A program made the translations under genes and the position numbers. Below are positions 13,035-25,714 of a stretch of 64,000 nt of DNA, piece by piece. The stretch is taken from positions 256,001-320,000 of the forward strand of contig CBDCFW010000005.1 in assembly GCA_965216465.1 (NCBI GenBank), in the 5' to 3' direction. This DNA comes from Bacteroidia bacterium. GTDB lineage: Bacteria > Bacteroidota > Bacteroidia > NS11-12g > UBA9320. The notes below the pieces were generated by a model that did not search any database, was not told the origin of the DNA, and saw only the letters and a program-made list of their open reading frames with translations. Position 1 is the stretch's first letter. Every line of letters begins with the position of its first letter.

Positions 13035-16000
13035 ATGAAGTCTTCAAATAAATACTGGAAAGGAATCGAAGAGCTGGAGCAAACTCCTGATTTCGTTGAC
13101 GCAAATGTTAACGAATTTTCAGAAGGATTGCCGTTAGACAAAGTTTTCGGAAACGATGATGATGTTAGAGCGAATCGAAGAGACTTTCTTAAATTTTTTG
13201 GTTTCAGCCTTGGTGCGGTAACCTTAGCTGCGTGTAATAGAACGTCAGTTAAAAAAGCAGTTCCATATGCTGTTAAACCTGAAAACGTAACTCCTGGAGT
13301 ACCTTTATACTATGCTAGCTCATCGGTTAGCAACAGCGAAGGTTTCCCAATGCTTGTTAAAGTTAGAGAAGGACGACCTATTAAGTTCGAACCTAACAAA
13401 GAAGCGAGTTACTACGGTGGTGGTTTAGATGGTCTTGCACACTCTGCAATTCTTTCTTTGTATGACACCAACCGATTACAAGGTCCAATGCTTGCTGGAA
13501 ATAACCAATCAGTTGCATGGGATGAATTTGACAAAAACGTTGTTGCTGCTTTAGACAAAACTGCAGCCAGCGGTAAATCAATTGCTATTGTAACTGGATC
13601 AAATACTAGCTTAGTAAACAATCAAGCTATTGCCGATTTCAAAGCAAAATATGCAAATACCAACACGGTTGCTTATGAAGCGATTTCATACTCTGGAATC
13701 ACTCGAGCAAATAACAGCTCTTTTGGAAAAGCAGTTATTCCTGCGTACAATTTCGACAAAGCAGAAGTTATCGTAAGTTTTGGAGCTGATTTCTTAGGGA
13801 CTTGGATTAGCCCAGTAAGATTCTCTTCAGACTACGCTAAGAACAGAGTTCCTAAAAATGGTAAAATGTCTAAGCATTACCAATTTGAAGCCTTGATGTC
13901 TTTAACTGGGTCAAATGCTGACAGCCGTGCTCCAATGAAGATGAGTAACGTTGGTCAACACCTTATCGCATTGTACAATGCGCTTGGTGGATCTAGCTCA
14001 AGCAAAGGAATGGAGCTTGCCGGTAACGCAATTAAGAAAGCAGCCGCTGACTTAAAATCTGCACAAGGTAAATCGCTAGTTGTTTGTGGAAGCAATAACG
14101 AAGCTGACCAAATGTTGGTTAACGAAATCAATATGATGCTTGGTAACTATGGATCGACTATCGATCTTACCAACTATTATAAAGGTCAAAGTGCTGACGA
14201 AAGAGATTTCGCTCAGTTTGCTAAAGATGCAAAAGCTGGAAAATATGGTGCCGCAATCTTTGTAGATTGTAATCCAGTTTATTCTCATCCTCAAATTGCT
14301 GATGCTCTTGCTAAGATTGGTACAAAAATCAGTACAGCAATTACTATGGATGAAACAGCTAAAGGATGTTCGCACGTTGCTACCAACTTGCACGCTCTTG
14401 AAAGCTGGGACATTAAAGAGCCATACAACGGCAGATATGTATTCAACCAACCTACAATCTCTCCAGTATTTAACGGAAGACAGGCAGCTAGTTCACTAGT
14501 AGCTTGGGCAGGAGGTAATGTTGCTGACAATGGCGAATACACCCATGGATACAGCTACATGAAGTCTGTATTCGCTGACCAAATTGGCGGAAACTTCATC
14601 AAAACTATTGAGCAAGGATTTAAAGACAACGTAGGTGTTGCCTCTACTCCTGCCCTAGTTGGAAATGTAAACTTCGGTGACATTGCTAAGAAGTCTGACC
14701 AAACTGAAATTATCCTTTACCAAAAAGTGGGTGTTAGAGATGGTGCTTTTGGAAACACTCCTTGGGCACACGAAATGCCAGATCCAATCACTAAAGTAAC
14801 TTGGGATAACTACTTAACCGTTTCAATGCCAGACGCAAAAGCAAACGGATGGGTAGATGGAGACCTTGTTAACATATCAGCAGGTTCAGGTTCAATTGAA
14901 GCTCTACCTATCTTAATTCAACCAGGACAAGCTAAAGGTACATACGGTGTTGCTCTAGGATACGGAAGAGAATTACCTGATACCGTTAAGAATGACCTTA
15001 AAGACTTAGGTAAGAATGCCTTCCCTCTTGTAAATTACAAAGGAGGATCTGCTTCTTATACTATTTCAAACCCAAGCTTCGAAAAAGCAGAAGGTAGACG
15101 TCATGAGTTTGGACAAACACAAACACACTACTCTATTGAAGGTAGAGATATTGTAAGAGAAGCTAGCTTAGAAGAATACCGTAAAGATCCTCATGCTGGT
15201 GGACACTTCCATAAACCAAAACCAATTTCGTTGTGGGATGATCATGATTATAGCAAAGGTCACCACTGGGGTATGGCCATCGACCTAAACAAGTGTACAG
15301 GTTGTAGTGCTTGTATTGTAAGTTGTTCTATTGAAAACAACGTACCAATTGTAGGAAGAGATGAGGTTAGAAGAAGAAGAGAAATGCATTGGTTGCGTAT
15401 TGATAGATACTACAGCTTTGAAGTACCTGAAACTAAAGACTTGAGCTTAAGTCTTGTTAACGGTGGAGATCAGCACGTAGAAAAAGGTGACTACATGACT
15501 CAGGAGAAGGTAATGGAAGAATATTCTTCAGTAACAGATTCTACTGATTACTACCAAAATGTAAAAGTAGTTCACCAACCGATGTTATGTCAGCATTGTG
15601 ATAATGCTCCTTGTGAGACTGTATGCCCGGTACTAGCAACCACGCACAGTTCCGAAGGTCTTAACCAAATGACATACAACAGATGTATTGGAACTAAGTA
15701 CTGCGGAAATAACTGTCCGTATAAAGTAAGAAGATTTAACTGGTTTAAATACAATAACAACTCGAAGTTCGATTACCACTTCAGCAACGATCTAGGTAAA
15801 ATGGTTATTAACCCTGATGTTACTGTAAGATCAAGAGGTGTAATGGAGAAATGTAGTTTCTGTGTTCAAAGAATTCAAACTGCTAAGCTTACAGCTAAGA
15901 AAGAGAATCGTACGCTAGAAGCTAATGAGTTTACCACAGCATGTGCTCAAACTTGTCCTTCAGGAGCTATCGTATTTGGTGACATGAATGATCCAAACAG

Positions 16001-16130
16001 CGACATCTCTAAATTGTACAAAGACGAAAGAGCATATCACGTTATTGAAGAGTTAGGTACTAAGCCAAGTGTTAAGTACATGACTAAGATCAGAAATAAA
16101 GAAGCAAACACTAACCATAACGCGCATTAA
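13035..16130 (+). CDS. actB: Alternative complex III subunit ActB (molybdopterin-oxidoreductase-like domain plus Fe-S domain)
   Basis: Tat motif RRDFLK, lipobox LAAC; CTGCSACIVSC, CQHCDNAPCETVC, CIGTKYCGNNCP, CSFC...CAQTCP. Confidence 0.95.
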   Translation: MKSSNKYWKGIEELEQTPDFVDANVNEFSEGLPLDKVFGNDDDVRANRRDFLKFFGFSLGAVTLAACNRTSVKKAVPYAVKPENVTPGVPLYYASSSVSNSEGFPMLVKVREGRPIKFEPNKEASYYGGGLDGLAHSAILSLYDTNRLQGPMLAGNNQSVAWDEFDKNVVAALDKTAASGKSIAIVTGSNTSLVNNQAIADFKAKYANTNTVAYEAISYSGITRANNSSFGKAVIPAYNFDKAEVIVSFGADFLGTWISPVRFSSDYAKNRVPKNGKMSKHYQFEALMSLTGSNADSRAPMKMSNVGQHLIALYNALGGSSSSKGMELAGNAIKKAAADLKSAQGKSLVVCGSNNEADQMLVNEINMMLGNYGSTIDLTNYYKGQSADERDFAQFAKDAKAGKYGAAIFVDCNPVYSHPQIADALAKIGTKISTAITMDETAKGCSHVATNLHALESWDIKEPYNGRYVFNQPTISPVFNGRQAASSLVAWAGGNVADNGEYTHGYSYMKSVFADQIGGNFIKTIEQGFKDNVGVASTPALVGNVNFGDIAKKSDQTEIILYQKVGVRDGAFGNTPWAHEMPDPITKVTWDNYLTVSMPDAKANGWVDGDLVNISAGSGSIEALPILIQPGQAKGTYGVALGYGRELPDTVKNDLKDLGKNAFPLVNYKGGSASYTISNPSFEKAEGRRHEFGQTQTHYSIEGRDIVREASLEEYRKDPHAGGHFHKPKPISLWDDHDYSKGHHWGMAIDLNKCTGCSACIVSCSIENNVPIVGRDEVRRRREMHWLRIDRYYSFEVPETKDLSLSLVNGGDQHVEKGDYMTQEKVMEEYSSVTDSTDYYQNVKVVHQPMLCQHCDNAPCETVCPVLATTHSSEGLNQMTYNRCIGTKYCGNNCPYKVRRFNWFKYNNNSKFDYHFSNDLGKMVINPDVTVRSRGVMEKCSFCVQRIQTAKLTAKKENRTLEANEFTTACAQTCPSGAIVFGDMNDPNSDISKLYKDERAYHVIEELGTKPSVKYMTKIRNKEANTNHNAH

Positions 16131-16139
16131 TAATAAAGC

Positions 16140-17486
16140 ATGTATCAAGCAGAAATTAGACAACCATTAGTAACCGGAGGTAAAACGTACTCCGATGTAA
16201 CTGAAGACATCTGCAGGCCAATTGAAAACAAGCCAACTAAATCTTGGTGGCTCGGATTCACCATTGCTCTAATATGTTTATTCATCTTAGTAGCAACACT
16301 TACTTGGACTGTATGGGAAGGTATCGGAACGTGGAACGTAAACAAAACGGTAATGTGGGGTTGGGATATCACCAACTTCGTATTCTGGGTTGGTATTGGT
16401 CACGCCGGTACTTTGATCTCAGCTATCTTATTACTATTTAGACAAAAATGGAGAATGTCCATTAACCGATCTGCAGAAGCAATGACAATCTTTGCGGTAT
16501 TCTGTGCTGCAATATTTCCATTGTTTCACATGGGTAGAGTTTGGTTAGGCTACTGGCCTTTACCACTGCCAAATGCATTTGGTTCGTTATGGGTAAACTT
16601 TAACTCTCCTCTTCTTTGGGACGTATTTGCAATCTCTACTTATCTATCGGTTTCTTTAGTATTCTGGTACTTAGGTTTGATTCCAGATATAGCTACAGTA
16701 AGAGATAGAGCTAAAACTAAAGCTAGAAAATTCTGGTACGGATTCTTTGCAATGGGCTGGAACGGTTCAGCAAAGTCTTGGGCACGTTATGAAGTTGTTG
16801 CTTTGATTCTTGCGGGTATTTCTACCCCACTCGTACTTTCGGTACACACAATTGTATCGATGGACTTCGCGACATCTGTAATTCCTGGATGGCACACCAC
16901 CATCTTCCCTCCATACTTCGTTGCCGGTGCAATTTTCTCTGGTTTCGGTATGGTATTAACCCTTCTTTTAATTGCTCGTCACGTAATGAATTACCAAAAC
17001 TACATTACCACTGAGCATTTAGAGGCCATGTGTAAGGTAATCTTGCTTACAGGGTCATTAGTAGGTTTGGCATATATCACTGAGTTCGTTATTGCAGCAT
17101 ACTCAGGATACCAATATGAACAATACGCGTTCGCAAACAGAATGTTTGGACCTTATGCTTGGGCATACTGGACCATGATGTTCTGTAACCTCGTTGCTCC
17201 TCAAGTATTCTGGAGTAAATGGGCAAGAACTACACCATGGTTCATCTTCATCGTTTCGATCGTTGTAAACATTGGAATGTGGTTTGAGCGTTTCGTAATT
17301 ATCGTAACATCTCTACACAGAGACTTCCTACCAAGTTCTTGGGTAATGTACCACGCAACTTGGGTTGAGGCAGGAATCTTTATTGGAACATTTGGATTAT
17401 TCTTCACTTGTTTCTTCTTATTTGCCAAATTCCTTCCGGTAATCAACATGGCAGAGGTTAAAACAATTATTAAAGACAAAGAGTAA
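16140..17486 (+). CDS. actC: Alternative complex III quinol-binding membrane subunit (NrfD/PsrC family)
   Basis: [44 protein letters not shown]. Confidence 0.96.
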
Positions 17487-17487
17487 A

Positions 17488-18084
17488 ATGGTAGATAAAA
17501 GTATATTATTAGACGATAAGAAGTTTACCCTTGGAATCTTCGATGATTCAGATAAACTTTTACACGCGGTTGAAACCTTGCGTAACAAAGGGGTTAAAAT
17601 CTTTGATTGCTACACTCCATTCCCAGTTCACCACTTAGATAAAGCTTTGGGTTATGAAAGAACTAACTTAACAATAAGTGCATTTCTATGTGGGTTATTA
17701 GGTGCATTGTCAGGGTTTACCCTTGCCTACACCATGAACGTTATGGACTGGCCAATGATCATCGGTGGTAAACCAACAACACTTAACATGTTTACCAGTT
17801 TTATTCCGGTAATCTTTGAGCTTACCATTCTATTTACAGCATTTGGTATGGTAATCATGTTCTTCGCGAGAAGTCGAATGATTCATGGCATTAAAGAAGA
17901 TATCTTAGATGTTAAACAAACCGATGATAAGATGATTTTAGCCATTGACAATAGTGTTGATCAATCAATCGCTAACGCAGAAATCATTTCTACCTTACAA
18001 AGCGAAGGAGCTATTGAAGTGCGTGAGCAAGCTGAAGCATTTAACACTTCACATACAATGGAAGATGAGCAAGTTAACAATTAA
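17488..18084 (+). CDS. actD: Alternative complex III subunit ActD (DUF3341)
   Basis: YTPFPVH, DWPMIIGGKP, FELTILF; operon position. Confidence 0.93.
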   Translation: MVDKSILLDDKKFTLGIFDDSDKLLHAVETLRNKGVKIFDCYTPFPVHHLDKALGYERTNLTISAFLCGLLGALSGFTLAYTMNVMDWPMIIGGKPTTLNMFTSFIPVIFELTILFTAFGMVIMFFARSRMIHGIKEDILDVKQTDDKMILAIDNSVDQSIANAEIISTLQSEGAIEVREQAEAFNTSHTMEDEQVNN

Positions 18085-18096
18085 TGAATTAGACCA

Positions 18097-18777
18097 ATGA
18101 AGCTTAACAATATAATAAAAGTAGGATTAGTACTAGCACTTCCATTAGCAGGAATGATGTCTTGTACAAGCTCTGGTGATAATCCAGGTATTGAGTACGC
18201 TCCTCAGATGTATGTATCTGATGCTTATGAGCCATTTTCTCAAGAGGCAGATGCACCATATGAATACAACGAGCATGGAATGACTATGCGACTTCCTGTA
18301 AACGGAACAGTTGCTAGAGGTCAAGTAAACTTTGTTTATCCGCATGCTAACAACAGCGAAGGATACGAAGCAAGTGCATCTTATACTTCATGGATTGCTG
18401 CTACAGAAGAAAATGTAGCCGAAGGAGAAAGATTATACAACATCAACTGCTGGCATTGTCACGGTAAAAAAGGTAAAAACGACGGACCGATTTTTAAATC
18501 TAAGAAAATGCCTGGTCCAAGTTGGCCTAGTTACAGTGCTGATTACATTAAGACCTTAGCTGATGGTAAAATGTATCACTCAATTACTTACGGTAAAGGT
18601 TTAATGGGGCCTCATGCTCCAATGCTTACACCAGACGAAAGATGGCAAGTAATTCACTACCTTAGAAAACTAAGCTTAGGCGATGATTTTGTTTATGCCT
18701 CTGAAGATGCTGTAATCGAGCCTGCTGAAGAAGTTGAGGAAGCTCAAGAAGAAACAAACGATAACGCAACACACTAA
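18097..18777 (+). CDS. actE: Alternative complex III monoheme cytochrome c lipoprotein
   Basis: Lipobox MMSC, single CWHCH, GTVARG, DERWQVIHY. Confidence 0.93.
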   Translation: MKLNNIIKVGLVLALPLAGMMSCTSSGDNPGIEYAPQMYVSDAYEPFSQEADAPYEYNEHGMTMRLPVNGTVARGQVNFVYPHANNSEGYEASASYTSWIAATEENVAEGERLYNINCWHCHGKKGKNDGPIFKSKKMPGPSWPSYSADYIKTLADGKMYHSITYGKGLMGPHAPMLTPDERWQVIHYLRKLSLGDDFVYASEDAVIEPAEEVEEAQEETNDNATH

Positions 18778-18782
18778 TTGAA

Positions 18783-20177
18783 ATGGGACATCATATAATT
18801 AAAGAAGTAACACAAGAAACATTTCAGTTCACTGGAAGATCAAAAATGATTGCTATCCTACTTTTTGTAGTAGGAGCTATTATGGCCGGAGTAGGTGCCA
18901 TGCAAGTACAAAACAACTGGGACAAGCCTGCACATGAAGAAGCAACTGAAGCTACTCACGAAGAAGCGGCTGTTGAAGAACACCATGCTACGCTTACTTC
19001 TGCTGAGTCTCCGTCTGAAGGAGCAGCAGAAGCAGATGGTCACCATGTAGAAGGAGAACACCATGAAACTACTTTTATGAGTAGAGTATGGGCTAACTTG
19101 CTTATGAATAGCTATTATTTCTGGCTATTTGCAATTGCATCTTTATTCTTCTTGGCCGTTAACTACGTTGCGAACGCTGGATGGGCAACCATGATAAAGC
19201 GTATTCCAGAGGCAATCAGTAGTTATACCTTAGTAGGATTTGTTATCTTATTTGCTGTAATTTTACTAGGACGTCACGATATGTATCACTGGGTACAATA
19301 TTTTGGAAGTTCAGCAGCAGGTGATGCAAATAGTGCTGGTTACGATGCCATTTTGGAAAGTAAAAGCTGGTTACTGAACAACGGTACCATCTTCTTCTTT
19401 ATTCCATTTGTATTCATCGTATGGTACTTTATCAGACATAAGTTAAGAACAAACAGTATTAAAGAAGATAAAGAAGGTGGTTTGAGCTTCTTCAGAAACT
19501 CAACCAGATGGTCTGCAGGATTCATCTTCTTCTTTGCATTTTCTTTCTCTGCTTTATCTTGGGTAATCATTATGAGTATTGATGCTCACTGGTACTCAAC
19601 CATGTTCTCTGTATACAACTTTGCAATCACCTTCGTTACAGGTCTTTCTGTAATGATGCTGGTATTGCTTTACCTTAAGTCAAAAGGTTACATGGAAATG
19701 GTTTCTGACGAAGTTGTTCACGATTTAGGTAAGTTCATGTTTGCGTTCTCTATTTTCTGGGGATACATTTTCTTAGGACAATGGTTACTTATTTGGTATA
19801 CCAACCTTCCTGAAGAAACTGTGTACTTTAACGCAAGACTTTCAGAATACTACAAGCCAATGTTCAGATTGAACATCGTTCTTAGCTTCTTAGCTCCTTT
19901 CTTAATCTTAATGATGAGAAACGCGAAGAGAAGTCCTAAGATTATCTTACTAGCGGCTGCAGCGATCTTAATTGGTCACTGGGTAGATGTTTATCTACTA
20001 GTTATGCCAGGTGTTGTAGGAGATCATGCAGGAATCGGAATGTTAGAAATTGGTACTACAATGGCATTTGCAGGATTGTTCATTTACATTGTGCTTAACT
20101 CGTTGAGTAAAGCCAACTTGTATCCAGCAAATCACCCTTACTTGTTAGAATCTGCTAACCACGATGTTGGACCATAA
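18783..20177 (+). CDS. actF: Alternative complex III membrane subunit ActF
   Basis: AGWATMIKR, HWYSTMF, HDLGKFMFAFS, QWLLIWYTNLPEE; His/Glu-rich loop. Confidence 0.93.
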   Translation: MGHHIIKEVTQETFQFTGRSKMIAILLFVVGAIMAGVGAMQVQNNWDKPAHEEATEATHEEAAVEEHHATLTSAESPSEGAAEADGHHVEGEHHETTFMSRVWANLLMNSYYFWLFAIASLFFLAVNYVANAGWATMIKRIPEAISSYTLVGFVILFAVILLGRHDMYHWVQYFGSSAAGDANSAGYDAILESKSWLLNNGTIFFFIPFVFIVWYFIRHKLRTNSIKEDKEGGLSFFRNSTRWSAGFIFFFAFSFSALSWVIIMSIDAHWYSTMFSVYNFAITFVTGLSVMMLVLLYLKSKGYMEMVSDEVVHDLGKFMFAFSIFWGYIFLGQWLLIWYTNLPEETVYFNARLSEYYKPMFRLNIVLSFLAPFLILMMRNAKRSPKIILLAAAAILIGHWVDVYLLVMPGVVGDHAGIGMLEIGTTMAFAGLFIYIVLNSLSKANLYPANHPYLLESANHDVGP

Positions 20178-21939: not shown

Positions 21940-22218
21940 TTATAGTTCAGATGGTTTGTATGTTATCTTACAATTGTTGCAAACTACTTCGCTTCCCTTT
22001 TCCACCAATGCAATTTTATAGAGGTGTTTGTCTGCATAGTCCTGAATCCACCCTTTTTTATGATCAACTTGATCAATACTAACATTATTGTTTTTGGCCG
22101 CCTCATAAAAGTGCTTTCCATACTCTTGCCGGCCCCAACAATTTGGACAAAGACCTTCAGGTGTTTCAGTGCTGTTGTTAGTTTTTTTCAGTGCTGAGAG
22201 TAAATCATTTAAGTTCAT
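21940..22218 (-). CDS. Small four-cysteine protein (CPNCWG...CNNC), probable metal ribbon
   Basis: Two CxxC pairs in 92 aa; divergent from Rrf2. Confidence 0.75.
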   Translation of the reverse strand: MNLNDLLSALKKTNNSTETPEGLCPNCWGRQEYGKHFYEAAKNNNVSIDQVDHKKGWIQDYADKHLYKIALVEKGSEVVCNNCKITYKPSEL

Positions 22219-22327
22219 AAGTTAACCCTTTAAACGAATGTAAGTTCTATTTCTGACAGATGCATAATATTGACCTAGACTTGATTATTCAAAACAATAA
22301 TTAATGTATCTTTATCGGCGATTTTCT

Positions 22328-22753
22328 ATGTTAAATAAAGCTTCAGAGTATGCAATAAAAGCAATGATTTACTTGGCCACACATCAAGACCATCAACGTT
22401 ACATTCGTATTCCTGAGGTGGCAGAAGCAATCAATTCTCCGGCCGCATTTACCTCCAAAATCCTCCAACAATTAAGAAGTAACGGCTTAGTTTTATCAGC
22501 TAAAGGAGCTAAGGGAGGTTTTAAGATAAATGCTGAAAAGAAAATTAGTCTTCTGCAAATTGTTCAATCCCTAGAAGGAAAAGAAGTCTTTACACGATGT
22601 ATTCTTGGACTCGACGAATGCTCATCTTCAAAACCATGTCCTGTGCACGAGCAATATAAATCCGTTAAGGCCCAGCTGCTTGAAATTATGACACGATCAT
22701 ACATCGATGACTATATCCCTGAAGTCGTTAGTAGAGCAATGAATCTAAAATAG
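22328..22753 (+). CDS. Rrf2 family transcriptional regulator, Fe-S ligand type
   Basis: EYAIKA, SAKGAKGGF, C-x6-C-x5-C-PVH; likely start ATG 22328 (track 22304). Confidence 0.92.
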   Translation: MLNKASEYAIKAMIYLATHQDHQRYIRIPEVAEAINSPAAFTSKILQQLRSNGLVLSAKGAKGGFKINAEKKISLLQIVQSLEGKEVFTRCILGLDECSSSKPCPVHEQYKSVKAQLLEIMTRSYIDDYIPEVVSRAMNLK

Positions 22754-22931: not shown

Positions 22932-23624
22932 ATGAAGTTATTATTTACCTCATTAGCCCTTTGTATGTTTTTAATTGGTTCTGCACAAAACTTTGTATAT
23001 AGTACTGATCAAGATCTTCGACTAGAAGAAACCAACTCTAACTACCTTGGCGGTGAAGTTAAATTCACTACACCTGAACCTGAAGATATTACCTTCAAAT
23101 GGAGAAAGTTGAAAACAGATGTACCTGCAGAATGGTCATTTTCTCTTTGTGGTTATGGTACTTGTCATGTTGGGTTGCCTAGTAGTGGAACGTTCCTTCC
23201 AATTACAAAAACGCAAATGGAAGATGGTAAAGAAGCTTACTTCATCTTAAACACAAGTCCAAAAACTTTTGACTCAGCTTACCTGCAGCTTTATGTTTAT
23301 GATCAAAATGACCAAGATCGTGGTGATACAGTATCTATAACGCTTGTAAACAAAGGTGTATCGAGTATTTCAATTGCACCTAATAAAGCTATTTCAATCT
23401 ACCCAAATCCGGCTAAAGACCTAATCAACATCCGTATTCCAAACGATGGACAAACGTATACAGCATCTATGAGTAATCTTTTGGGAGAAACCATCCTAGA
23501 AATTGGTCAACTTAATTCAGGTGTTAACGGTGTTGATGTTTCTACGCTTAGTAAAGGAATTTACTTTGTTCAGCTATCTTCGACCGATGGAAGTACAAAG
23601 ACCCAAAAAGTAATTGTAGAATAG
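22932..23624 (+). CDS. Small T9SS cargo protein with CxxxxC motif
   Basis: Signal peptide; WSFSLCGYGTCH; type A CTD IYPNPA...LSKGIYFV...KVIVE. Confidence 0.85.
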   Translation: MKLLFTSLALCMFLIGSAQNFVYSTDQDLRLEETNSNYLGGEVKFTTPEPEDITFKWRKLKTDVPAEWSFSLCGYGTCHVGLPSSGTFLPITKTQMEDGKEAYFILNTSPKTFDSAYLQLYVYDQNDQDRGDTVSITLVNKGVSSISIAPNKAISIYPNPAKDLINIRIPNDGQTYTASMSNLLGETILEIGQLNSGVNGVDVSTLSKGIYFVQLSSTDGSTKTQKVIVE

Positions 23625-23627
23625 CCA

Positions 23628-24503
23628 ATGACCACCACTTTGGGTAGAAGCTTATCGCTATTTTTTACCTTCATTCTTCTTGGTTGTTTATGCAATGTGC
23701 ATGCAAGCCAGCAAACGATTTATATTAATAAAGGACATTTAATCACCAGTGATAGCCTATCACTGCCTTACTACACATACAATTCTTCTAGCAATTTTGA
23801 ATCAAGTAATACATTAATCAAGCTTGCTGTTAATGACAGCTTGTACCTCACAATTGTAAATAATGATAGCTCAGATCATGGCTTTACTATCAAAGAAATG
23901 TCACTAGGTGACACTATTTCGGCCTTTGATTCGATAACAATTGGACTGAAATTTAATGAAATTGGAACGTTCATCATGTTTGACCATTTGAACAATTCTC
24001 GATGTGCAAATATGGGCCTCTCTGCAATTCTGCATGTTTATGATCCTAACGCAGAACTTCCTTCATTTTATTGGAATATTAAAGACCATCAAAAAGAGGT
24101 TTATCATCAATTAGAAAATGAATTAGTAGTGGACTGGTCTCAATACTATCCCCAATATTTTACACTAAACGGAAGGCATAATCCGCATATCAACAAAGAC
24201 TCAATAGCTCGAGTTACAGGAAGCGTTGGTGACAGCATTCTTATTCATATGGTAAACACAGGAAACTCAACACATTCCATTCATTATCACGGATATCATG
24301 CTGAAATTGTTCAGTCTTCAAAATACCCGAGCCATGTTAAAAGAAAGAAAGACACTTTTGCCGTTCTGCCTTTTGAAGTTGTTGTCGTTCTCTTGGTTCC
24401 TGATCAAGTTGGAGAATATCCGGTTCACGATCATAATCTAGTGGCTGTAACAGGTGGAGGAATATACCCCAACGGAATGTTTTTGACCCTAAAGATTCAA
24501 TAA
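23628..24503 (+). CDS. Two-domain multicopper oxidase subunit A (copper histidines in domain 2 only, no type 1 Cys, no CTD)
   Basis: Signal peptide; YFTLNG, HSIHYHG, KDT, YPVHDH...GM. Confidence 0.85.
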   Translation: MTTTLGRSLSLFFTFILLGCLCNVHASQQTIYINKGHLITSDSLSLPYYTYNSSSNFESSNTLIKLAVNDSLYLTIVNNDSSDHGFTIKEMSLGDTISAFDSITIGLKFNEIGTFIMFDHLNNSRCANMGLSAILHVYDPNAELPSFYWNIKDHQKEVYHQLENELVVDWSQYYPQYFTLNGRHNPHINKDSIARVTGSVGDSILIHMVNTGNSTHSIHYHGYHAEIVQSSKYPSHVKRKKDTFAVLPFEVVVVLLVPDQVGEYPVHDHNLVAVTGGGIYPNGMFLTLKIQ

Positions 24504-25714
24504 TGAAGTACTATTTAATCCTGATTATATCGCTCTTTTCGAGCTTGTCTTATGCTCAAGATGATGTGGATGTATTTCTTATTGCTCGAAATACTGGAGA
24601 GAAAGTTTTGGCCAATAACGACACTATTCGTGTTTTTGGATTTGCAGAAGATCTTTCTTCCCACCCTAGTATTCCTGGACCTACTATTTATGCAAAGGAA
24701 GGAGACTCAGTGCACATCGATCTTTGGAATGTATCGCAAGGTGCTCCGCATACTATTCACTTGCACGGATTAGATGTTGATCAACAAAACGATGGTGTTC
24801 CTCATTTATCATTTGAAGTTGAACACATGGATCATGGATTCTACCACTTCAAAGCACCGCATGCAGGCACCTACTTGTACCACTGTCATGTGGCATCTAC
24901 AGTTCATGTGCAGGCGGGTATGTATGGTTTGATTATTATTAAGCCCACAGATGGAACCAAGCAGACTTGGAATGATGGATATACCTATGCCAATGAGTTT
25001 GCTTTTATGACTTCTGAAATTGACACCGTTTGGCATCATGACAGTGTTTTGAATCACGGGCACGGACCGAATAGCGATCCAGTTAAGATTCCTATTTACA
25101 ACCCACAATTTTTCTTAGTAAATGGCCACTCAGACCAACAAATTATTGACCAAGATGTAAAAGTAAAATCTGGCCAAAATCAAAATAGCTATTTGCGTTT
25201 TGCGAATATTGGTTTTTTCGCCAATGAGGTAATTTTCCCTTCGTCACTTAATGCAAAAATTGTTGCTTCCGACGGACGGCCTCTGCCCGAAGTGGAGGTT
25301 TCTGACACCTTGACCTTATTTCCAGGAGAACGTTATGGGGTTCTGATAAACAATCCGGCAATAGGCACTGATAGTATTCTTTTGAATTTCAGAGATCTGA
25401 ACACCAATAGGCTTTGGAACACGCAGTTTATTCCCTATGAAAATGTTGAAGTCCTGAACATCGAACAAACTTTTGATTCTGAACTAGTGGTTTATCCCAA
25501 TCCATTCACAAAAACAATCGATGTGGTGAGCAAGGTGGTGTTTGATGCCATCACCGTAATTGATTTAAACGGGAGAATGGTGTTTGAACAAAAAATTGAA
25601 AGCAAAGTCTCAACGCTTCAACAAATTGATTTGGCTTTATCACCAGGATTGTACAATCTCGTACTGTGGAACAACGACTTACAAGTTGGCCAAAAGAAAA
25701 TAGTGCGACTTTAA
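24503..25714 (+). CDS. Two-domain multicopper oxidase subunit B (type 1 site in domain 1) with T9SS type A CTD
   Basis: IPGPTI, HTIHLHG, YLYHCHVASTVHVQAGMYG, ASDGRPL, PGERY; CTD VYPNPF...GLY...KKIVRL. Confidence 0.9.
   Translation: MKYYLILIISLFSSLSYAQDDVDVFLIARNTGEKVLANNDTIRVFGFAEDLSSHPSIPGPTIYAKEGDSVHIDLWNVSQGAPHTIHLHGLDVDQQNDGVPHLSFEVEHMDHGFYHFKAPHAGTYLYHCHVASTVHVQAGMYGLIIIKPTDGTKQTWNDGYTYANEFAFMTSEIDTVWHHDSVLNHGHGPNSDPVKIPIYNPQFFLVNGHSDQQIIDQDVKVKSGQNQNSYLRFANIGFFANEVIFPSSLNAKIVASDGRPLPEVEVSDTLTLFPGERYGVLINNPAIGTDSILLNFRDLNTNRLWNTQFIPYENVEVLNIEQTFDSELVVYPNPFTKTIDVVSKVVFDAITVIDLNGRMVFEQKIESKVSTLQQIDLALSPGLYNLVLWNNDLQVGQKKIVRL

Follow-up and report, generated by a model that had tools for sequence, protein, structure and literature searches.

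The stretch of DNA analysed here (hereafter the window) comprises 64,000 nucleotides (nt) from a Bacteroidia bacterium (contig CBDCFW010000005.1, positions 256,001 to 320,000) and contains three genes arranged head to tail, named C, A and B in this work. Both A and B have two cupredoxin domains per chain (from Pfam, PDB and fold matches) and, based on the distribution of copper ligands between them, they very probably pair as the subunits of a single multicopper oxidase with an obligate heteromeric architecture, derivation from a type C two-domain enzyme being part of the best explanation. A multicopper oxidase split over two translationally coupled genes had already been proposed in a first-pass annotation made from the letters alone, and both open reading frames (ORFs), as well as the TAATG that couples them, were recovered at the positions that it gave. 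The features of the locus, all on the forward (+) strand, are the following:

22932..23624, +, gene C: 230 amino acids (aa), with a signal peptide, a domain of about 125 aa of no known family and a type IX secretion system (T9SS) sorting domain
23628..24503, +, gene A: 291 aa, with a signal peptide and two cupredoxin domains, without type 1 (T1) copper site and without T9SS tail
23979..23987, +, degenerate F-D119-H120 in domain 1 of A: Asp instead of the T1 Cys, and a His that is not conserved
24273..24299, +, H216-S-I-H219-Y-H221-G-Y-H224 in domain 2 of A: inside the predicted interface
24426..24434, +, H267-D268-H269 in domain 2 of A: D268 and H269 are among the listed interface residues
24501..24505, +, TAATG: overlapping stop and start codons, read from the sequence as coupling the translation of the two genes
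24503..25714, +, gene B: 403 aa, with a signal peptide, two cupredoxin domains and a T9SS sorting domain
24749..24769, +, H83-T-I-H86-L-H88-G in B: all three His in 119/119 relatives
24824..24835, +, H108-M109-D-H111 in B: an extra His/Met patch outside the canonical sites, marked by its conservation among B relatives
24881..24922, +, H127-C128-H129-x5-H135-x4-M140 in B: T1 Cys, His and Met, with the Cys flanked by two type 3 His; 119/119
25490..25705, +, T9SS type A C-terminal sorting domain of B (residues 330-401): PF18962 and TIGR04183 above cut-off

Gene C ends 3 nt upstream of A, and the degenerate domain 1 of A also carries an H84-G-F motif. The signal peptides of the three proteins were judged by eye, and the sorting domain of B scores 37 bits with PF18962 (cut-off 27).

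According to the available text of PMC3600357, a trinuclear copper site requires four His from each of two domains and, in the accessible part of PMC13151041, adjacent protomers are described as supplying the two His sets in two-domain enzymes. In the A-B pair the motifs are complementary (domain 1 of B and domain 2 of A), as the first-pass annotation had noticed, and this complementarity turned out to be a trait of the whole family, conserved in about 120 homologues of each protein (the best 120 of 369 relatives for A; for B, the best 120 of 1444 relatives, from which P0230 was left out, giving 119 sequences). In A, H219, H221, H267 and H269 are invariant (120/120), as are all four His of the H216-H224 motif (120/120); position 119 is Asp in 117/120, with no Cys among the residues listed there, and position 120 is His in only 33/120. 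In B, each of H83, H86, H88, H127, C128, H129, H135 and M140 is present in 119/119 sequences and the HLH motif in 118/119, and domain 2 has no ligand motif, its ligand positions being without His across the family. The T1 site lies in the N-terminal domain only, a feature present in B, with T1 absent from A. When both partners are taken from the same locus (77 paired rows, corresponding to the window and 76 loci), the four domain-2 His are found in 77/77 A proteins and the T1 Cys in 0/77, and the B proteins have a complete domain-1 set in 76/77 cases and no HxH in domain 2 also in 76/77. Of the four copper-binding regions, two are in each chain, and all four are united only in the A-B pair or in P0242, a natural fusion of both. 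Judging from the sequences, a homotrimer of A or of B could collect only four of the eight His and, because these are split four and four between A and B, neither chain alone could build the trinuclear site. Being conserved across the family, the complementary ligand loss is, at the level of the sequences, not the product of chance. As a separate observation, four intact A-family ORFs (P0303, P0324, P0332 and P0379) lack one or more trinuclear His, and these form one clade, adjoining the A half of P0242.

The two genes also occur together in a strict manner, as would be expected from partners that depend on each other. In the species-genome collection (80 genome loci returned out of 145 A relatives), B comes directly after A in 78/80 loci, and the remaining two break off inside A at a contig end; at the 74 A-B junctions examined, the genes overlap by 4 nt in 35 cases and by 1 nt in 16. 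Profile searches over 191 genomes of the order returned 19 loci for each gene (those of B with at least 362 bits, the next best having 79), all within one set of 18 genomes, with A and B adjacent in 19/19; related genomes are not independent, and no p-value is claimed for this order-wide adjacency. The module is patchy in Bacteroidia (18/191 genomes of the order), and the named relatives are mostly Flavobacteriales, Crocinitomicaceae and Saprospiraceae, Lishizhenia tianjinensis (L012) being an example of a carrier in culture. The genome to which the window belongs (100% complete) has one A and one B, and in it we found no other multicopper oxidase or NirK motif able to supply the missing His and no third two-domain paralogue. 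Two loci (L041:10151-12186 and L054:3905-5952) have a second, divergent A-B pair beside the first and, in L041, MbnP and MbnH-like genes lie between the two pairs.

Partners that occur independently of each other would speak against this dependence, and the only ones found were B relatives from the genus g31. In a phylum sample of 401 genomes, A is present in the window's own genome only, a B relative in two g31 genomes, and ordinary intact type C enzymes in three. Within g31 itself (251 genomes), a B relative was found in 11 and A in none (E 1e-20), with the same A profile that had found A in 18 genomes of the order. Neither the T1 Cys nor any of the trinuclear His is left in these B relatives (12/12 loci: L116, L117 and L211-L220), where the gene order is dead B, C, tyrosinase (12/12), the tyrosinase taking A's place; coordinates for this conserved three-gene operon are L124:5275-8169 and L125:7255-10147. 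An HxxEHG patch is kept in 11/12 of the ligand-dead proteins, which also retain a WH motif; the C relative is tail-less and has the motif WDCSMCQHGAC, and the tyrosinase has a signal peptide, making the operon a candidate copper-loading kit for a secreted tyrosinase. Since the ligands of B are lost where A is missing, this genus supports the dependence between A and B rather than refuting it. Together with the division of the His and the strict co-occurrence, it argues for the earlier claim that neither protein would work alone.

The A model (predicted local distance difference test, pLDDT, of 92.8) has 2zwn and 3g5w as top folds, with template modelling scores (TMq) of 0.79-0.80. The complex of B and A was modelled without tails and signal peptides and scored 0.95, the best of three controls scoring 0.00 (the mark used for complexes was reached by 116/157 solved pairs and by 2/215 mismatched pairs); its runs agree in at least 98% of the contacts and the pLDDT of the partners is at least 94. 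All A residues in the modelled interface belong to domain 2 (H216-H224, RxKDT and D268-H269), with the H86/H88 region of B facing H219/H221/H269 of A, and B H88-A H219 among the listed contacts. The invariant SDGRP and PGER motifs of B sit in the same interface, and their docking of A in the model would explain why the ligand-free domain 2 of B keeps invariant residues. Each chain has, besides the face used in the model, an equivalent unused face, which would be needed to close a ring. Positions conserved in at least 90% of the sequences amount to 16/41 in the used face of B vs 3/35 in the unused one, and to 18/43 vs 3/37 in A, where the contrast remains once the ligand columns are removed (12/34 vs 3/34, p 0.003). 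Which of the two possible faces the model uses is more telling than the complex score itself and, given the decay of the ring faces left unused, a trimer is less likely than an open AB dimer. The functional unit would most likely be an open AB dimer, with four cupredoxin domains and one site; the heteromeric assembly of the first-pass annotation is supported, its suggested A2B and AB2 trimers being less likely than this dimer.

A natural in-frame fusion of A and B exists in P0242 (686 aa), in which a short polar linker joins an intact A to B and its tail, with no second signal peptide. The P0242 model (pLDDT 80.6, predicted template modelling score 0.77) gives Foldseek TMq values of 0.51-0.61 vs ceruloplasmin, factors V/VIII and Mnx, and of about 0.30 vs two- and three-domain proteins, which fits four modelled domains placed as in a six-domain ring. 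An alternative alignment of 132 rows was discarded, as the B half had attracted A rows. Longer A proteins were searched for with four matches, namely P0242 and three proteins with long N-terminal extensions, which is weak evidence of rarity. The 689-aa A+B ORF of P0230 (L083:5941-8010) was rejected as a fusion, as it comes from a one-base slip in a G run, which removes the last strand of A and leaves the signal peptide of B. This slip recurs in several assemblies (9/15 listed cluster members), beside separate 285- and 403-aa forms, and may be a real allele, the outcome of phase variation or a systematic error at the homopolymer.

Other enlarged forms of A were seen along the way. In L053:3313-6795, L061 and L067 (and in P0245 and P0390-P0392), A is the C-terminal part of a secreted protein of about 1100 aa, with large uncharacterised N-terminal domains, and the B partner has an insert of about 190 aa before the tail; in L053 and L061, a CusA-like gene comes after the A/B genes. 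P0344 and P0346 each have four domains. A two-domain half with domain-2 ligands comes first (P0344, which its source names 'manganese oxidase', has it fully intact, and in P0346 its N-terminus is cut), and after it come an A-type half and a C-terminal cupredoxin; they are an independent partial-loss intermediate.

In the mechanism that we propose, an electron from the substrate would enter at the T1 copper in domain 1 of B (H83, C128, H135 and M140) and pass, through the His-Cys-His bridge, to a single trinuclear cluster composed of B H86, H88, H127 and H129 and of A H219, H221, H267 and H269, where O2 would be converted into water. Four-electron O2 reduction is the activity predicted from the conserved ligands, and it is on this conservation that the proposed chemistry is based; the substrate does not follow from the ligands. 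A and B would enter the periplasm on their own signal peptides, to fold and pair there, and the AB unit would then reach the cell surface via the T9SS, using the tail of B and carrying A as a tail-less passenger, with the T9SS-tagged C probably helping in copper loading. What the sequences and models show directly is the division of the ligands, the coupling and joint occurrence of the genes, the loss of ligands in B where A is missing, the modelled interface and the decay of the faces left unused; copper binding, catalysis, stoichiometry, passenger export and the role of C are what we infer. Concerning export, PF18962 is found on 109/120 B relatives vs 0/120 A relatives, and 118/120 A proteins end within a few residues of the last strand. 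Signal peptide and sorting domain, the marks of T9SS cargo, are both present in B and C, and A is without sorting domain, so that its delivery to the surface is predicted to need travel with B. The extracellular oxidase put forward in the first-pass annotation would hence owe its export to the tail of B alone.

Gene C is directly upstream of A in 67/81 loci and anywhere in the locus in 69, with 73 loci having room to show it, and its W68, C73 and C78 are invariant (69/69). The search with C gave no significant PDB match, and its best Atlas score (0.86) is a lead only. C is probably a copper-loading or accessory subunit, although its Cys pair could instead be a structural disulfide. Copper-handling genes are neighbours of the module in 28/81 loci (MbnH-like in 20, MbnP in 18, HYC_CC_PP in 11, CopZ-like in 4 and CusA-like in 3, with a further small HYC-like cluster also among them). 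Additionally, H108 and H111 of B are each present in 119/119 of the close relatives, and at frequencies of 0.94 and 0.57 in a wider set; the H108-H111 patch, which 11/12 of the ligand-dead B relatives retain, is, with H120, H178 and H185, a candidate metal-docking site.

Relatives of gene C are found in other surroundings as well. A second C paralogue of the window's own genome (L127:6888-7562, G000:C6), with the Cys pair and a T9SS tail, lies between a Nfu-like gene and acetyl-CoA carboxylase genes, from which it follows that the C family is wider than the oxidase module. In L017, L018, L020, L021, L035 and L074, an extra, short (about 140 aa) and tail-less C relative is directly downstream of B. 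On another contig of the same genome there is a copper cluster (L126:4922-14348, G000:C6), which comprises two HYC_CC_PP-like, three MauG/MbnH-like and two MbnP genes (one of these with a T9SS tail), together with genes for a TonB-dependent receptor, an HMA-MauE protein and a CopZ-like protein.

Several observations weigh against the reading of A and B as one heteromeric enzyme, set within copper handling. The model brings B H86/H88 together with A H219/H221/H269, as the first-pass annotation had foreseen for the whole of the two His sets, but B H127 and H129 and A H267 are not among the listed interface residues (contacts, and not distances, being listed). The AB model resembles the solved homotrimers 2zwn and 3g5w, and the complex score may reflect this likeness and not the binding of the modelled pair. 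As for P0242, it is a single sequence on one contig, its model comes from a 19-row alignment and has a linker with pLDDT below 50, and a VIA second look at this model returned two-domain matches only in the top 50. Copper-related neighbours are absent from 53/81 loci and from this window, and where they occur they could just as well serve to load a secreted cuproenzyme of any kind; the listed B genes of a distant clade, moreover, do not have the extra His patch. Finally, the contrast between the faces of B becomes weak when the ligand columns are removed (10/33 vs 3/33, p 0.10). This last point would suit the same heteromeric enzyme in the form of a closed trimer (A2B, AB2 or a ring that C completes, only one of the three interfaces being live), and in the available texts of PMC13151041 and PMC3192119 the two-domain oxidases described are all trimers. 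We consider such a ring unlikely, given that A is without the DVxQxNDGV insert and the DGR/PGER motifs of B, that B is without the GEYPVHDHNL segment and the HSxHxH face of A, that a third two-domain paralogue is missing from the window's own genome, and that the extra cluster members in the 81 loci are second A-B pairs (L041 and L054) or larger oxidases (L043 and L081). A departure from catalysis altogether, with A and B binding copper for surface scavenging or storage, or acting separately (B as a T1 electron carrier and A as a copper binder), would agree with the MbnP/MbnH neighbours and with the persistence of ligand-dead A (four representatives) and B as intact ORFs, which indicates that these folds have non-catalytic uses. 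Nevertheless, invariance extends jointly to all eight trinuclear His, to the His-Cys-His bridge and to the axial Met, and a single site shared by both chains is what the strict coupling, the fusion and the modelled interface indicate, which leaves this alternative highly improbable.

If A and B are indeed one oxidase, the question becomes what it oxidises. We lean, tentatively, towards Cu(I), within surface copper handling, and regard Mn, Fe or iodide as quite improbable. The heteromer could also be a laccase-type oxidase of phenols or catechols (for pigment, cross-linking or detoxification), with the nearby copper genes only loading it, which is a possibility to be taken seriously even if we doubt it. 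The g31 module, with a tyrosinase in A's place in 12/12 loci, could be a swap of phenol oxidases, the closest structure (2zwn) is named a two-domain laccase, and SCO1/SenC is beside the distant pair in 23/80 loci; yet the tyrosinase link is equally explained by B and C as a general copper-loading kit, the extra conserved His/Met residues of B are more suggestive of a metal substrate, and CusA- and CopZ-like neighbours do occur. The catalytic motif of NirK is DxH. A copper nitrite reductase split over two genes would share with NirK the T1 site in domain 1 and a site between subunits (many NirK structures do rank high by fold), but B has HLH at the place of the catalytic DxH, as the first-pass annotation had pointed out when setting NirK aside, eight His are conserved instead of three, TIGR02376 scores 67 and 18.5 vs a cut-off of 296, and type C oxidases come first in the sequence and fold ranks. 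This reading is very improbable, and the least probable of all.

Among the known systems, A and B are both closest, by sequence and by fold, to the type C oxidases (2zwn, a metagenomic laccase; 3g5w, the Nitrosomonas europaea blue copper oxidase; and 9cck, N. maritimus Nmar_1354). In these, following the available texts of PMC13151041 and PMC11761707, T1 is in domain 1 and the trinuclear site lies between domain 1 of one chain and domain 2 of the next, and the same arrangement is predicted for A-B. However, known type C enzymes have all ligands in one chain and are trimers of one gene product (the 'heterotrimer' of 9cck contains a clipped copy of the same protein, and not a second gene product), while A-B has its ligands divided over two genes, a single predicted site in each unit and a T9SS tail on B. 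With six-domain oxidases (MnxG, algal Fox and ceruloplasmin), A-B would share one surviving trinuclear site among several domains; in the bacterial and algal enzymes this site is between domains 2 and 3 (in the accessible part of PMC3600357), as in the A-B fusion, and the P0242 model matches their domain arrangement. They differ in that six-domain oxidases are single chains with T1 in the even-numbered domains, whereas A-B has four domains on two chains (291 and 403 aa) and T1 in the domain equivalent to 3. With NirK, A-B has in common two cupredoxin domains, T1 in domain 1 and a (here predicted) catalytic copper between subunits, differing in the missing catalytic Asp motif, in the number of His and in a TIGR02376 score far below cut-off. 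Overall, A-B is a real and well-supported variant of type C oxidase, with a predicted type C-like working and without two of the features that define that family.

The split is not restricted to the family of the window. A deep search gave 140 representatives at E of 1e-30 or lower, many of them A-types from outside the window's A family, and in a distant A-type clade (80 metagenome loci returned out of 173 relatives) a B-type gene comes after 68/81 A-type genes, with 12 others having less than 500 nt of contig left and one having 632 nt. In this clade, domain-2 ligands were found in 0/60 complete B-type partners, and the two-gene split occurs also in relatives that are of the twin-arginine translocation (Tat) type or without T9SS. 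At L147:7048-7644 and 22 other metagenome loci, a protein of about 199 aa with no Pfam match is encoded between the distant B-type gene and SCO1/SenC. In a quick tree (82 rows, without an outgroup from solved structures and with ligand columns kept, so that shared traits may have drawn rows together), a branch with support 100 separates most A-types from B-types and intact enzymes, and the B-types form a group (support 84) that lies among intact relatives. Dead B is nested in the window's B family (98) and dead A in the window's A family (100), and three other A-type halves arose separately from intact enzymes. The duplication with reciprocal loss that had been proposed for A and B is thereby supported, as an ancient event and not as a local one, with A-type loss having recurred.

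Regarding the remainder of the window, an Rrf2 gene (22304-22753) and a divergent neighbour, encoding a 92-aa protein with two CxxC (21940-22753 overall), are just upstream of C. Farther away (13035-20177) are genes for a molybdopterin-like Fe-S subunit, an NrfD-like membrane subunit and cytochrome c, which we take to resemble alternative complex III and which are not a conserved neighbour. Neither the Rrf2 gene nor these upstream respiratory-complex genes recur beside the module in the loci of A relatives. Scans for promoters and terminators gave no more than expected by chance (13 vs 13.1 and 2 vs 2.6, respectively), and a search of the plasmid collection returned one weak match only.

In the open literature we found no heteromeric, split or four-domain multicopper oxidase, subscription papers and supplements, which may bear on novelty, being outside this scope; the available portions of PMC8556283, PMC7785015 and PMC7036934 contain nothing on split enzymes. 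A 2011 survey (PMC3192119, in its available text) removed sequences without four copper regions and concluded that Bacteroidetes seem to be without two-domain laccases, and a filter of this kind would hide the A and B genes. The obligate two-gene version adds therefore an architecture that motif-based surveys discard, and A or B, if expressed singly, would test as inactive. In its widest form, the picture would be that of a living four-domain, single-site, open 'two-thirds ring', a stage between the homotrimeric two-domain and the six-domain enzymes, crossing the outer membrane via the T9SS as a folded heterodimer with A as passenger, while C and the His/Met patch of B would be a portable copper-loading unit, kept by one genus for a tyrosinase after the loss of A and of all catalytic ligands of B; taken as a whole, we find this rather unlikely. 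Even so, A-B offers a testable intermediate on the accepted path from two-domain to six-domain oxidases, it predicts the export of a tail-less subunit as passenger through the T9SS and, as a single-site enzyme, it would allow the two halves of a trinuclear centre to be changed independently.

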